The notes beneath the pieces were generated by a model, which worked only from the letters and a program-made list of their open reading frames with translations, searched no databases and was not told the origin of the DNA. The translations under genes were made by a program, and so were the position numbers. A stretch of DNA of 35,218 bases from an uncultured Muribaculaceae bacterium (lineage in GTDB: Bacteria > Bacillota_I > Bacilli_A > RF39 > UBA660). Every line of letters begins with the position of its first letter. The first letter of the stretch is position 1. The stretch lies in contig CAZQOT010000001.1 of assembly GCA_964595115.1 (NCBI GenBank), forward strand, positions 1 through 35,218, in the 5' to 3' direction. Positions 4,064-21,380 of the stretch are shown here, piece after piece.

Positions 4064-5335
4064 TTAATTCTCCTTTATATTAATAACATTGGCATTTATA
4101 ATACCCTTGCTAAACATTATATCAATATTATCATTAAGTTTCAAATTATTTATTTTTTCAATAGCTTTATTATCTTTTTTGACAATAGTATATCCTCTTT
4201 TTAGAGTGTTTAATGGATTTAAAACATCTAATTTTTCAATAAATTTTTCTAGTTTGTTTTTAGGTTTATCTAATAATTTAGATGGATTATTTAGAACATA
4301 ACTTTGTTTAATATGATTAAGTCTATTATTGTTCTTATCAATTATATTTAAAATAATTGAATTAAATTTATCTAAGTAACTATCTAGCATTTGCTCTTTA
4401 ACTTCATACATACGCAATGGATTGGTTAAGACATAGCTATCCTTTAATTTTTTTAAAATTATTTTATAATTATCAATTTTATTTGATAATACTTTACTAG
4501 CCCTTATTTTCATGTTATCAATGTAATTTAGAACATCAATCATATTAGGGACCGCTATTTCAGCGGCTCCTGTAGGTGTTGCTGCTCTAACATCGGCTAC
4601 AAAATCACTGATTGTAAAGTCTATTTCATGGCCGACGGCACTGATAGTTGGAATCTTACACTCAAATATTGCTCTGGCAACATCTTCTTCATTAAAGGGC
4701 CATAAATCTTCAATTGAACCACCACCCCGCCCAATTATTAATACATCAATCTCAAATTCCTGAGCTTTCTTGATTTGTTTTACGATATTTGCATGTGCAT
4801 CAGCGCCTTGGACTAATGATGGGAATATAATTGTTTCTACTAGTGGAAATCTTCTTTTCAAAGTTGATAATATATCTTTGATAGCAGCACCGGTAGGAGC
4901 TGTAACTATTCCTATTCTTCTTGGTATTTTTGGTATAGGTTTCTTATGCTTAGGATCAAATAATCCTTCACTGTCTAATTTAGCTTTCAATTGCTCAAAA
5001 GCAATATATAAATTACCAATACCATCTTCCTGCATCTCATCGATATATATTTGATAATTACCAGTTGGTTCATAAATACTTATTTTACCTTTGACTAATA
5101 CTTTCATTCCATCTTCAGGAGTAAACAATAGTTTAGAGGCATTTGAGATAAACATAATAGCCCCTATTCTACTGTTTTCATCTTTTAAAGTAAAATATAA
5201 GTGCCCTCTTGTATGAGGCTTAAAATTAGATATTTCGCCTTTTAAATAGACAGTTTGTAAATGCTCATCATTTTCAAACTTATATTTTAAATAACGAGAG
5301 ATGGCAGTAATAGACAAATACTTATCATCATTCAT
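4064..5335 (-). CDS. xseA: Exodeoxyribonuclease VII large subunit
   Basis: 423 aa with an OB-fold N-terminus (VYLKGEISNFKPHTRGHLYFTLKD) and a catalytic GRGGGSIEDLWPFNEE motif. Confidence 0.9.
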   Translation of the reverse strand: MNDDKYLSITAISRYLKYKFENDEHLQTVYLKGEISNFKPHTRGHLYFTLKDENSRIGAIMFISNASKLLFTPEDGMKVLVKGKISIYEPTGNYQIYIDEMQEDGIGNLYIAFEQLKAKLDSEGLFDPKHKKPIPKIPRRIGIVTAPTGAAIKDILSTLKRRFPLVETIIFPSLVQGADAHANIVKQIKKAQEFEIDVLIIGRGGGSIEDLWPFNEEDVARAIFECKIPTISAVGHEIDFTISDFVADVRAATPTGAAEIAVPNMIDVLNYIDNMKIRASKVLSNKIDNYKIILKKLKDSYVLTNPLRMYEVKEQMLDSYLDKFNSIILNIIDKNNNRLNHIKQSYVLNNPSKLLDKPKNKLEKFIEKLDVLNPLNTLKRGYTIVKKDNKAIEKINNLKLNDNIDIMFSKGIINANVINIKEN

Positions 5336-8568: not shown

Positions 8569-9138
8569 CTAATAATTTTCAGATAGAAGTTGGTAATATG
8601 CTTTTGGATGTGCGCACACTGGGCATATTTCTGGTGCTGAGGTGCCAACATGAACATTTCCGCATTCACGGCATATCCATGTAACTTCTTCATCTTTAGC
8701 AAATACTTTATTATTTTTTACATTTTCGTATAAAAATCTATATCGTTTTTCATGACGTTCTTCAATTTTAGAAATCTTCTCAAATAATACGGCTATATCA
8801 TTAAACCCTTCTTCTCTTGCTATTTTAGCAAATTCAGGATATAAAACAGTAGCTTCGTCCTTTTCTCCATTAGCAGCGTATTCTAGATTTTCAAGTGTTG
8901 TTCCAATATCACCTGCCGGATAAGAAGCCGTAATTTCTACTTCCCCACCCTCTAGTTTTTTATAAAATAATGATGCATGTTCCCTTTCGTTATCAGCTGT
9001 CTCTAAAAATATAGCTGCTATCTGTTCAAAACCTTCTTTTTTAGCAGTCGATGCATACATTTCATACCTTCTTTTAGCTTGACTTTCTCCAGCAAAAGCT
9101 TTCAATAAATTTTGTTCAGTCTTTGTTCCTTTTATCAT
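8569..9138 (-). CDS. rbr: Rubrerythrin (ferritin-like diiron domain plus C-terminal rubredoxin-like CxxC...CxxC)
   Basis: MIKGTKTEQNLLKAFAGESQARRYE-like start and CRECGNVH...CPVCAHP. The ATG at 9138 follows AAGGAGG; the ORF-track extension to 9183 lacks an SD. Confidence 0.85.
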   Translation of the reverse strand: MIKGTKTEQNLLKAFAGESQAKRRYEMYASTAKKEGFEQIAAIFLETADNEREHASLFYKKLEGGEVEITASYPAGDIGTTLENLEYAANGEKDEATVLYPEFAKIAREEGFNDIAVLFEKISKIEERHEKRYRFLYENVKNNKVFAKDEEVTWICRECGNVHVGTSAPEICPVCAHPKAYYQLLSENY

Positions 9139-9210
9139 ATTTATTCCTCCTTTATCATTTATAATTATATCATAAAGTACCAAAAAAGGAATTGAAATTC
9201 CTAATTAAAT

Positions 9211-13283: not shown

Positions 13284-13312
13284 ATTATAATATACAAAAT
13301 AGCACTCGTCAA
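13284..13312 (-). promoter_or_regulatory. SigA-type promoter of clpB (TTGACG-N17-TATAAT)
   Basis: Minus strand has TTGACG at 13312..13307, a 17-nt spacer, and TATAAT at 13289..13284, about 19 nt before the ATG. Confidence 0.6.
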
Positions 13313-13325
13313 TACCGAGCGCTAT
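13299..13325 (-). promoter_or_regulatory. CIRCE-like HrcA operator overlapping the clpB -35
   Basis: Minus strand reads ATAGCGCTC-GGTATTGAC-GAGTGCTAT, versus the consensus TTAGCACTC-N9-GAGTGCTAA. Confidence 0.6.
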
Positions 13326-13350
13326 TTCTGCTATACTACATTTTAATAAT

Positions 13351-13866
13351 TTATTCCAACCATATCTTTGTAATAACTGTGTCGTGAGCCATTCTATATC
13401 CACCTAACCAAAAATTAAAATGAATATAGTATTCTCCTTGATATGTACTAATATCTAAACTTCCTTCATATTGGGATTCATCATCGGGAAAATAAAAATT
13501 AGAAACAAACTGGTCGGTATCATCCATTTTATTATCATTTATACTTATATGTGATGCCCATGCGTTATCAGTAGTAGTTGTGTATTGCACTTTTAATGTA
13601 TTATATCCAGTTGTATCGACTTTGTTTTTGGTTGTTATTACAATACCATTACCAGCAGGTGTCATGTTTTCTTCAATATGTATGGCTATGTTATTTGCAT
13701 TAAAAGTTATTGTAGTACCAGGTTGAAGATAGGTATCTCCAATTTCCCAATCATCAGTTCCAATGCCTTCATTATACAGGTAATAATTTAATCCCAGATC
13801 GCAACTATCTTCACTTACCTCAATATTATGATATGAACCACATGCACTCCTATAATATATTGTTTT
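13351..13866 (-). CDS. Hypothetical beta-rich protein with an N-terminal CGSYHN...C module. The frame is open for 171 codons, but the first in-frame ATG is at 13665.
   Basis: The frame stays open from the TAG at 13869..13867 to the TAA at 13353..13351. The N-terminal 16 aa match the region upstream of the glycine-rich gene. No in-frame ATG/GTG/TTG exists upstream of 13665, and 13665 has no SD. Confidence 0.45.
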
Positions 13867-13904
13867 CTATATTTTAGAATAACATAGATATACGCTTTTT
13901 GCAA
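13839..13904 (-). repeat. Copy B of the 66-bp promoter/leader repeat (TTGCAA-N17-TATTCT with TG-extended -10, SD GGAGTG, ATG)
   Basis: 57/66 identical, by hand alignment, to 21023..21088. The -35 is at 13904..13899 and the -10 at 13881..13876. Confidence 0.65.
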
Positions 13905-13948
13905 CCAAAGAATATAAAGGACGTGTAAAAAAATGATAATTTAAAATT

Positions 13949-19266: not shown

Positions 19267-20700
19267 TTATTGTGCACCGATAAATGTAATTATAGCGTAA
19301 CCATCACCTGATCTACCGTTCATATTTCCACCATTAGGATTTGGCATTGATGTGTTACCATCAATCGTTTGGCCATCAGTTACGCCCCCAATATAACCAG
19401 AACCACCTGCACCTGAACCATATGTAACAACATAATATAGTTGTGAATTGCCAATACATTGGAATCTAGATCCACCGCCACCTCCATAGTAACCACCGCC
19501 GCCAACACCACCCCCTTGAGTAGATTTGTCACCGCCAACACCTAAGGTTCCGGCTGATCCAGCCCATTGTTCAAAAGTATAAGTACAAGTACGTGGAGTA
19601 GACGCAATAGCGCGTTGACCTCCAGCTGTTTGAGTGCCACCTTTGTTTGGTATATTGGTTGTTATTACGCTTGTATGATAAGTCCCAGAATAAATTAATC
19701 CATCTACGCCATCACTGCCACCACCAGCGCCACCCTTTATACATTGTGTAGAGTTGCTAGTATCGTATCTTAGTTCATTATGCCCTGCCGATCCACCGCC
19801 GCCAGCAACAATAATTCTATTGCTCAAATCAGTTCCCCCCATACGAATATCAGTAGCCCCACCCCCACCATAGCCTGATGAACAAGCAGAAGTAGTGCCG
19901 CCTCCGCCATTATAACACATACCACCAACATAGATATAAATTGTTTCGTTAGCATTAATGGTTACATTACCAGTAGAATAACTACCCTTACCAGCATATG
20001 ATATGTCGCATTTCCAATCACTTCCACCTTGTGCTCCCCAAACTTCCAATTTATAAGTACCTGTTACTGGTGCTATAAATGTTTGTTGAGAACCAGTGAA
20101 AGAATATTCACTAGGAGGGAATGTTACATTCACTGTTCTAGTGGCTGTTGCAACGTTACCAGCTTCATCAGTTGCTGTATAAGTAATCGTATATGTTCCA
20201 ACAGCATTTATGTTGACATCTCCTTTAGTCGACACACTTAAATTACCACTAATATCATCTGTTGCAGTAGCACCCTGATCAGTGTATGTAGATCCTAGTT
20301 CAATTGTAATTGTACTATCGCCAGTTATCGTTATTTCTGGAGCTAAAGTGTCTAATAAAAAGCTCTTTGAAAATCTAGCTACATTATCATTCAAATCACT
20401 AGCTATTGCATGGAGATAATAAGTTCCTGAGGTTATTGGAGCTTCTGTTAAGGGGTTTCCACTAACATAACTATGTATATATTCTTCGTCTGTTGGTACA
20501 TCTTCACTATTTGTCCAAACATATTTGAGACTAGAAGTATCAATAGTTTTATCAATAACTGAAATAGTTATTTTACTAACTGTCATATATGTTGATGAAC
20601 CATTTGGCGTGTATATAATAATTGGCGGTCCAAAATCTAGTTCACAATCACCTTCATATACATTAACATTATGATAACTTCCACATGAGGTAAAACCTCC
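19267..20700 (-). CDS. Surface-type protein with a Cys-loop module, two Ig-like domains (the second DUF5011-like) and a C-terminal glycine-rich domain (PF12810-like). The frame is open back to the pilin TGA; the first ATG is at 20586.
   Basis: ITITGDSTITIELGSTYTDQGATATDDISGNL...GTYTITYTATDEAGNVATATRTVNV is Ig-like. YSFTGSQQTFIAPVTGTYKLEVWGAQGGS plus repeated GGGG tracts marks the glycine-rich family. There is no signal peptide and no SD before the 20586 ATG. Confidence 0.7.
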   Translation of the reverse strand, partial: GGFTSCGSYHNVNVYEGDCELDFGPPIIIYTPNGSSTYMTVSKITISVIDKTIDTSSLKYVWTNSEDVPTDEEYIHSYVSGNPLTEAPITSGTYYLHAIASDLNDNVARFSKSFLLDTLAPEITITGDSTITIELGSTYTDQGATATDDISGNLSVSTKGDVNINAVGTYTITYTATDEAGNVATATRTVNVTFPPSEYSFTGSQQTFIAPVTGTYKLEVWGAQGGSDWKCDISYAGKGSYSTGNVTINANETIYIYVGGMCYNGGGGTTSACSSGYGGGGATDIRMGGTDLSNRIIVAGGGGSAGHNELRYDTSNSTQCIKGGAGGGSDGVDGLIYSGTYHTSVITTNIPNKGGTQTAGGQRAIASTPRTCTYTFEQWAGSAGTLGVGGDKSTQGGGVGGGGYYGGGGGSRFQCIGNSQLYYVVTYGSGAGGSGYIGGVTDGQTIDGNTSMPNPNGGNMNGRSGDGYAIITFIGAQ

Positions 20701-21021
20701 TCATTTATCTTTGCCAGTTATTATAATAAATAGTTTATCATTATGTTTAGTAAAGACAATACTTTCATAATTAGCACCGTTCAAATTTAAGGCTGTTAAT
20801 AGACCTTTCAAATCACTATTATAATCCATTGGATTAAAATCACCTATCTCTAATTTTTTTAAATCAATAGATTTCAACACTAATTTTGTATCACTTTTCA
20901 TTGAGCTCATCGTGCTTTTTTTAATAATACCTGATATTCCTGGTACGGCTATTGCTAAGATAATAGCAAGCACAACTATTACTGCCAATAATTCTACTAG
21001 CGTAAATCCTTTTTTATTCAT
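20701..21021 (-). CDS. Prepilin-type N-terminal cleavage/methylation domain protein (type IV pilin / pseudopilin-like), 106 aa
   Basis: MNKKG|FTLVELLAVIVVLAIILAIAVPG is a class III signal with Glu at +5. SD GAGGAG precedes it. The gene ends in TGA. Confidence 0.85.
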   Translation of the reverse strand: MNKKGFTLVELLAVIVVLAIILAIAVPGISGIIKKSTMSSMKSDTKLVLKSIDLKKLEIGDFNPMDYNSDLKGLLTALNLNGANYESIVFTKHNDKLFIIITGKDK

Positions 21022-21022
21022 T

Positions 21023-21088
21023 CACATGCACTCCTCTATTATATTGTTATCCATATAATAGAATATCATACATATACACTTTTTGCAA
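21023..21088 (-). repeat. Copy A of the 66-bp promoter/leader repeat (TTGCAA-N17-TATTCT, TG-extended) driving the pilin gene
   Basis: The -35 is at 21088..21083 and the -10 at 21065..21060, followed by SD GAGGAGTG and then ATG-TGA-ATG. It matches 13839..13904. Confidence 0.65.
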
Positions 21089-21140
21089 ACATAAGCATTG
21101 AAAAAATCGCGTAAAATAGATTGATATTACCAAAACAAAA

Positions 21141-21190
21141 GGAAGACCTTCTAAAATATATTTATCAAACAATATTTTAAAAGGTCTTCC
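21141..21190 (-). terminator. 10-bp perfect inverted repeat with a 30-nt loop, possibly the xerC terminator
   Basis: GGAAGACCTT...AAGGTCTTCC. On the minus strand it is followed by TTTTGTTTTGG. The loop is unusually large and the element lies about 190 nt past the xerC stop. Confidence 0.35.
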
Positions 21191-21380
21191 ATATAAATAT
21201 TAAATCAAATAATAATTATCAATCGAATATTTTATTAAACTAATTTTGATTATGATTACTTTGACACATATTTATCTCAAATGTAGTTTGATTACAACAT
21301 TACAACGAAGGTATTTATATGTATTTTTTATGTTCTTTTGGACACTTGTTTTTTCTATCCATAAATAATTAATACTTATA

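Follow-up and report, generated by a model that had tools for sequence, protein, structure and literature searches.

Two loci on the minus strand of the 35,218-nt stretch of DNA analysed here (the window; contig CAZQOT010000001.1 of assembly GCA_964595115.1, from an uncultured bacterium) share a short module with two cysteines, and it is the genes to which these modules belong that concern us. Module 1 (CGSYHNVNVYEGDCEL) occupies 20685..20638 and module 2 occupies 13842..13795. They are identical at 10 of 16 residues and have a common C-X12-C spacing. When about 70,000 sixteen-residue windows from all six frames were compared with module 1, the next-best match had 6 identities of 16, so the similarity between the two modules is far beyond chance. 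Each module is overlapped by a five-codon open reading frame (ORF) that lies in the -1 frame relative to the Cys frame: ATGTGGAAGTTATCATAA, reading MWKLS and a stop, at 20686..20669 in locus 1, and ATGTGGTTCATATCATAA, reading MWFIS and a stop, at 13843..13826 in locus 2. Both of these mini-ORFs start with an ATG one base ahead of the first Cys codon, and both end at the same TAA. Upstream in the Cys frame, the sixth codon before the first Cys is a TGA in locus 1, and the ninth is a TAG in locus 2, with eight sense codons between. The earliest in-frame ATG, GTG or TTG is found at 20586 in locus 1 and at 13665 in locus 2. An earlier note on this DNA had recorded the two modules with their shared residues and Cys spacing, the mini-ORFs and the upstream stops, and all of these are confirmed in the sequence at the positions it gave. 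The note had further held that the Cys frame is protein-coding and that the conservation is at the protein level. Here too the results agree with it: codon-usage log-odds trained on the window's own genes, summed from the module to the first ATG, are +19 bits for the Cys frame of locus 1 and +34 bits for that of locus 2, with negative values for the other two frames, and the homologues described below point the same way.

Directly upstream of module 1 lies a prepilin. The ORF at 20701..21021 opens with MNKKGFTLVELLAVIVVLAIILAIA, a prepilin cleavage/methylation motif followed by a hydrophobic helix, and matches Pfam N_methyl (PF07963, E = 4.7e-8), TIGR02532 (E = 4.3e-8) and NCBIfam models of the GspG/ComGC type. 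Its first 106 codons (20704..21021) encode the leader MNKKG and, after it, FTLVELL, then the alpha-1 helix and beta strands 1 and 2. This ORF and the 477-codon open frame that follows it are in the same frame and are separated by a single TGA (20701..20703), the only TGA in the window with at least 80 stop-free codons on both sides. Beyond module 1 come a beta-rich domain (20413..20640), a bacterial surface Ig-like domain (PF16403, 20125..20334, E = 1.1e-21) and a glycine-rich domain of the ALK/LTK-type GRD family (PF12810, 19279..20064, E = 8.4e-26), and the frame ends with a TAA at 19267. The Ig-like domain is 46% identical, and the beta-rich domain 44% identical (E = 4e-14), to domains of the homologous locus L086. 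Since the latter match extends around Met-20586, the annotated start at 20586 lies inside a domain.

The prepilin ORF is preceded by an element that recurs in locus 2 and that we call D1. Copy 1 (21023..21091) contains a promoter-like TTGCAA-17 nt-TATTCT with a preceding TG, a Shine-Dalgarno (SD) sequence GGAG, and an ATG TGA. The promoter-like site agrees with the consensus at 8 of 12 positions, which is under the threshold of the promoter scan, and it was not flagged; its reading as a promoter was made by eye. The start-stop ATG TGA (21022..21027) adjoins the pilin ATG at 21021, is in frame with it, and includes the upstream CATGTG (21028..21023), such that the leader sequence runs GGAGTGC ATG TGA ATG AAT AAA AAA GGA TTT ACG: a start-stop and then the true pilin start. 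The start-stop stands 3 nt past the SD GGAG and is absent from the homologous loci L082, L083 and L084.

Searches with the sequence downstream of the TGA were unproductive: the N-terminal 125 residues after the TGA found no match in a direct homologue search, and a metagenome scan with the 477-residue frame found nothing. The productive query was a fusion of the pilin part, a Trp and the module, which retrieved 916 homologues from the protein database. The closest of these are single ORFs that read through the TGA position, from metagenomes of uncultured Bacilli or 'Mollicutes', and their architecture is a prepilin leader, an alpha-1 helix, two strands, a Trp motif and then adhesin-like domains. 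The family motif around the last of the pilin strands is ...GK(N)KW-x-G-[LF]-x-[AVS]-[C/x]-G-[ST]-x-x-x-[MVI]-x-V..., with a second Cys in the Cys-bearing members, and the TGA of locus 1 falls at the conserved Trp of GK(N)KW. Of the 18 aligned homologues, 17 have Trp in this column and one has Tyr, and the codon is TGG in five homologous DNA loci (L082, L083, L084, L086 and L087). The protein P0003, which is 63% identical and carries N_methyl and Ig-like domains, reads ...VIGKGKWDGFSACGSYKNMTVSEGTCEIDFIAPVITLNGD... where the window has ...ITGKDK*GGFTSCGSYHNVNVYEGDCELDFGPPIIIYTPNG... (asterisk, stop); across the TGA position it continues as ...VIGKGKWDGFSACGSYKNMTVSEGTCEIDF... and then into its Ig-like domain. 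Likewise L086 runs uninterrupted through the pilin module, the Trp, CGSYNKMKVVSSTSEC, the Ig-like domain and the domain matching the residues around Met-20586. Pilin module and extra domains are found in one polypeptide in the homologues P0003, P0005, P0011, P0014, L086 and L087. In the window this would hold only for locus 1, given read-through of the TGA; locus 2 has an extra domain and lacks the pilin module.

An AlphaFold2 model of P0003, made with a 33-sequence alignment, places the module within the predicted fold. The model has a long N-terminal helix (residues 8-58) and strands at 85-93, 96-103, 110-114 and 119-123, with block-mean pLDDT values of 91-97 for residues 91-120, and of 97 and 96 for residues 101-120. 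Strands 3 and 4 of this four-stranded sheet correspond to the module, with the two Cys bracketing the hairpin. Foldseek comparison of the P0003 model with the PDB gave no significant pilin match. From the alignment and the model, the module appears to be the last beta-hairpin of the pilin module, sitting in the middle of a protein rather than at an N-terminus. The earlier note's guess of a resemblance to the D-region disulfide loop of type IV pilins came close, for the module would be the final hairpin of a pilin module with a prepilin ORF just upstream, and, as in classical type IV pilins, two Cys lie towards the end of that module and enclose its last beta strands. The likeness is imperfect, however. 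In the present family further domains follow the loop, which is not at the C-terminus, the disulfide is putative, and the Cys pair occurs in about a third of the aligned members, the others having S, Y, H, E or T at the first position. A short pilin of a neighbouring lineage, in L003, does end in C-X19-C-K-L, as in a C-terminus of the D-region type.

We conclude that both modules are probably internal parts of modular type IV pilin genes, that of locus 1 interrupted by a TGA and that of locus 2 deleted at its 5' end, and that no unusual start is needed to account for either; we put the probability of this reading at roughly 80%. Locus 1 would be a single 585-codon modular pilin gene (21021..19267) in which a Trp codon reads TGA in the assembly. 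In genes of this kind a small pilin module carries adhesin-like domains at its C-terminus. With ordinary termination, locus 1 would yield a 106-residue pilin lacking half of its beta-sheet, and the module with the beta-rich, Ig-like and glycine-rich domains would be made only if the UGA were misread, most plausibly as Trp by tRNA-Trp. The closest known parallel is with the modular (bimodular) type IV pilins PilB and PilC of Streptococcus sanguinis, which have the same prepilin leader, small pilin module and grafted surface or adhesion domains; more than 1,200 modular pilins in 264 architectures are known from monoderm and diderm bacteria (PMC8179133). The grafted domains differ: rather than vWA or lectin domains, locus 1 has Ig-like (PF16403) and glycine-rich ones, and locus 2 an unnamed beta-rich one. 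Further, and unlike the situation in S. sanguinis, the ORF of locus 1 is TGA-interrupted, locus 2 has no pilin module, and there are no pilus machinery genes in the window.

The earlier note had taken the module to begin a separate protein, launched from the SD-ATG mini-ORF by frameshifting, by termination and reinitiation, or by non-canonical initiation. It is true that in both loci an SD-like sequence is followed by an ATG one base before the first Cys codon, and that both mini-ORFs stop at the same TAA. The need for an unusual start disappears, however, once the homologues are seen to have about 110 pilin residues ahead of the module. In locus 1, moreover, the parts of the mini-ORF can be traced to sense codons: the GGAGG is the Gly-Gly codon pair GGA-GGT, the ATG arises from TCA-TGT (Ser-Cys) and the TAA from CAT-AAT (His-Asn). 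GGAGG inside coding sequence is no rarity, with 11 of the 19 minus-strand copies so placed. Locus 2 has both its SD and its ATG from the 5' leader of the pilin gene itself. Nor is the mini-ORF conserved: its ATG is absent from the intact L082 and L083 and is a TTG in L086, while L087, whose ORF is uninterrupted, nevertheless has the mini-ORF by an accident of coding (GCA-TGT-GGT). There is no slippery sequence at either locus and, after the TAA, no in-frame ATG, GTG or TTG restart before 20586 or 13665. A protein starting at the module would also appear to lack an export signal, though its domains are of surface-protein type. We therefore hold this model to be extremely improbable. The mini-ORF would instead be a by-product of coding in locus 1 and a relic of the leader in locus 2, and not a device of translation. 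Among the mechanisms that the earlier note listed, stop read-through alone keeps some relevance, and that only for locus 1, where the TGA stands at a conserved Trp codon. The weak hairpin that it described in locus 1, GAGGT-TTT-ACCTC, is present, yet the region 20640..20720 folds no better than its shuffles (z = -0.45).

Locus 2 begins with D1 copy 2 (13839..13907), a pilin-type upstream element with the SD GGAG and CATGTG (13844..13839), which is joined directly to module 2. A repeat search found the two D1 copies (13839..13907 and 21023..21091) to be 86% identical across 69 nt. In a three-way alignment, locus 2 tracks the pilin leader (...AGGAGTGCATGTG) up to CATGTG and tracks module 1 from CATGTGG on. 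On the minus strand between 13 and 22 kb, this hexamer occurs in only three copies, at 21028, 20687 and 13844, and the two in locus 1 flank a 341-nt segment that is the pilin-coding part missing from locus 2. The locus 2 mini-ORF starts with the ATG of the leader's ATG-TGA, which has become joined to the module. The junction recurs in an independent Logan contig, L001 (SRR8925826). Downstream, a 171-codon open frame without a usable start (13351..13866) consists of the module and a domain of about 150 residues ending ...GEYYIHFNF...KIWLE. P0005, an intact pilin of 274 residues, indicates what the gene may once have been: module 2 aligns to its TVCGFFNQIEIGADVEC, and the part that comes after ...GKNKWAGLTVCGFFNQIEIGADVEC is collinear with the locus 2 frame up to the GEYYI...IW-x-E end. 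A word-indexed protein search with the locus 2 frame found only its own annotated 104-residue product. A terminator-like hairpin of 13 pairs with a T-run (13296..13328) lies 23 nt past the stop codon.

These observations suggest that locus 2 arose by a microhomology deletion, in which about 340 nt would have been lost between CATGTG hexamers, one in the 5' leader and the other at the [A/S]-Cys-Gly codons. Such an event would have placed module 2 directly behind the promoter, SD and ATG of a pilin-type leader, the ATG being out of frame with it. It would resemble the microhomology-mediated deletions that result from replication slippage between short direct repeats, the junction lying exactly in the 6-7 nt repeat CATGTG; here, the state before the deletion has to be reconstructed from the paralogous locus 1 and the intact P0005. 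Because no in-frame start, signal peptide or pilin leader segment is left, locus 2 is most likely a non-functional remnant. That 171 codons are still open means that either the deletion was recent or some expression persists.

An alternative is that the pilin segment between the CATGTG copies is a cassette that moves, or is copied, between sites, and that the locus occupied at the time produces a complete pilin bearing its own adhesin domains. The two loci do share a leader on one side of the segment and a module on the other, and a gene for a tyrosine recombinase adjoins locus 1. The shared flanks, however, are either too short or too diverged for homologous recombination, the longest exact matches between the modules being 7 and 9 nt, and locus 1 is stopped by its TGA even with the cassette in place. 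The recombinase, for its part, is found beside ppdK, the gene for pyruvate phosphate dikinase (PPDK), in relatives that have no pilin insertion, and looks like a housekeeping gene. On the same grounds of position, we rejected it as a shufflon-type switch. We consider the probability of cassette switching to be negligible.

The reading of both genes as interrupted modular pilins has several points against it. Locus 2 resembles residues 108-228 of P0005 weakly, with 23% identity and a pairwise E of 0.001. Locus 2 keeps both a promoter-like element and a terminator-like hairpin, and so has the look of a maintained transcription unit. The downstream frames of the two loci (477 and 171 codons) are fully open at 28% G+C, and dead genes in that condition would need to have been inactivated recently. 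No close relative of the genome was found, so that neither the TGA nor the deletion can be followed back in time. Finally, the homologous locus L083 has an in-frame TGA of its own, which may hint that UGA at Trp codons is tolerated or even used in this lineage. Our data show the homology, the position at the Trp, the repeat at the junction and the coding frame, while the mechanism of the deletion and the expression status of the two genes are what we infer from them.

There are three ways to regard the TGA of locus 1: as a site of functional read-through, as a lesion, or as an error. In the first, near-cognate tRNA-Trp would decode the UGA in a few per cent of passages and give a little of the 585-residue adhesin-pilin, as would suit a minor pilin located at the tip. 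The TGA stands at a Trp-conserved column, and the 477 codons after it are open and carry recognisable domains. The TGA of L083 adds to this. L083 is the closest relative, a JGI contig in which the site corresponding to that of locus 1 is TGG; its TGA (4092..4094, in ...PIKWDGST*VDTDTF...) is a second, independent one at a mostly-Trp column, with Trp in four of six relatives, and has 280 or more open, homologous codons after it, and gene callers split the gene into two. In about 0.9 Mb of low-GC loci, only in locus 1 and L083 does a TGA split a protein-like frame and leave the first start codon at a distance; a TGA split in L003 was dismissed as a non-coding frame ahead of a methyltransferase gene. 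There is also precedent, as a TGA reporter in Bacillus subtilis (catA86-TGA) showed about 6% read-through in a prfB+ strain, enteric bacteria insert Trp at UGA, and in-frame stops under purifying selection are reported to be widespread (PMC7918605).

Against functional read-through, the stop is not conserved at its site, which is TGG in the five homologous loci, and neither TGA has a stimulatory RNA structure near it (z = -0.45 for 20640..20720, and -0.23 for the L083 site). Rfam gave no match up to E = 1, and no SECIS element, with the sole exception of a spurious miRNA match elsewhere. The base after both TGAs is G; from data on Escherichia coli, this is not a notably leaky context. A change from TGG to TGA is a single G-to-A transition, of the kind favoured by AT-biased mutation. 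Furthermore, other members of the gene class have lesions that would not be leaky, namely a TAA (L157 and L159), a 1-nt frameshift (L084) and an out-of-frame deletion (L085), from which it follows that decay is common in this class. For locus 1 we therefore regard ordinary inactivation, or loss of a contingency type, as more likely than dedicated recoding, and functional read-through as unlikely. The wider proposal is that this lineage inserts Trp, inefficiently, where modular pilin genes have UGA in place of a Trp codon, and that it exploits or tolerates this to obtain small amounts of large adhesin-pilins from genes that mostly terminate early; the two TGAs could also mark the beginnings, within these genes, of a shift to UGA as a Trp codon. 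We think this proposal distinctly improbable.

The similarity to Mycoplasmatales, in which UGA is reassigned to Trp, and to leaky UGA as seen with catA86-TGA and in enteric bacteria, lies in the interrupting codon, a UGA where Trp is expected, and in the low G+C of the lineage, which database records of the relatives label 'Mollicutes/Mycoplasmatota/Bacilli'. Unlike a case of reassignment, however, the window uses TGA as the normal terminator of four other genes and has no other in-frame TGA. An alternative code, with UGA as Trp (code 4) or Gly, was accordingly rejected, for these four genes end in TGA at normal lengths; the next TAA or TAG is 3-14 codons past the TGA in each. PPDK, TopA, Clp and MurC are uninterrupted under table 11, and the split in locus 1 is the only one of its kind in the window.

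Alternatively, the TGA might be an artefact of assembly or consensus, or a strain polymorphism, with TGG in most cells and hence an ordinary intact modular pilin. The contig comes from an uncultured organism, and the TGA has no independent confirmation, exact-protein look-ups for locus 1 having given no match. Yet a second assembly has the junction of locus 2 as well, L083, from an unrelated assembly, has a TGA of the same kind, and single-base consensus errors are uncommon in short-read assemblies. To this explanation we give very little credence.

Other interrupted members of the gene class were noted in the course of the comparison. At 490..515 of L084, just before the conserved Trp, an A-run is 1 nt shorter (GGAAAAACAAATGGG), which puts the downstream KWEGLTVSGT... 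into the -1 frame; slippage by -1 on this run would bring back GKNKW, and the short run could reflect mutation, phase variation or frameshifting. At 820..918 of L085, a low-coverage contig, the pilin module runs out of frame into a segment from much further down the gene (...YVYKI...GWH...IEVQF), in what appears to be another internal deletion in the modular pilin family. The TAA in L157 (position 1258) and L159 (position 3038), which are the same sequence in two contigs, replaces a Lys of related modular pilins (...LLAKYNL...) and has 179 open codons after it.

The surroundings of the two loci are those of a bacterial chromosome of about 28% G+C. Genes in the window include those for PPDK, topoisomerase I, a Clp ATPase, MurC, RNase HII, TrmD, RimM, L19 and signal peptidase; neither pilus machinery genes nor tRNA genes were found in it. 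A phage origin was discarded given this housekeeping neighbourhood, and a 12 kb megablast search against a phage collection gave only a trivial 175-nt match. By PPDK, the nearest genomes are metagenome-assembled genomes labelled 'Bacilli bacterium', 'Mycoplasmatota' and 'Tenericutes', at 84-75% identity, and both loci are absent from them; the two nearest, without pilin loci, have PPDK identities of 84% and 78%. In L003, L005, L007, L022 and L050, a XerC/D-like recombinase gene lies directly upstream of ppdK, while in the window the pilin gene sits between the two. As the recombinase thus adjoins ppdK in relatives without the pilin, the pilin gene is an insertion between two housekeeping genes, and the recombinase has no specific tie to the pilin. 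L003 has a pilin of 138 residues downstream of ppdK instead, with the C-X19-C C-terminus.

A few features nearby deserve mention. Between the recombinase gene and the pilin upstream element, a long inverted repeat at 21142..21191 on the minus strand (GGAAGACCTT...AAGGTCTTCC) is followed by a T-run and is probably the terminator of the recombinase gene; Rfam gave only a spurious sub-threshold miRNA match there. The Clp ATPase ORF is listed from a GTG at 13403 on the minus strand, where it overlaps locus 2, and its first 40 codons contain the hairpin 13328..13296 and a promoter-like site (13312..13284) agreeing at 11 of 12 positions. The real clp start is probably further downstream. Similarly, the rubrerythrin ORF is listed from a TTG at 9183 on the minus strand, and a properly spaced GGAGG precedes an ATG near 9133, which is more likely to be its start.

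Our analysis removes an apparent case of unorthodox translation initiation, and it corrects the gene models at both loci. The annotated 106-residue pilin and the 439-residue ORF from the ATG at 20586 would be parts of one modular pilin gene, and the annotated 104-residue ORF at 13665 the tail of a truncated one. It also adds to the modular pilins a family from uncultured Bacilli of the gut or rumen; its grafted domains are Ig-like, glycine-rich and of other types, and its genes are often interrupted. Modular type IV pilins are already known, and any wider interest may lie only in the possible leakage of UGA to Trp. If the TGAs at Trp-aligned positions in two related organisms are real and are read through, they would bear on the origin of UGA-to-Trp decoding in the low-GC Bacillota.

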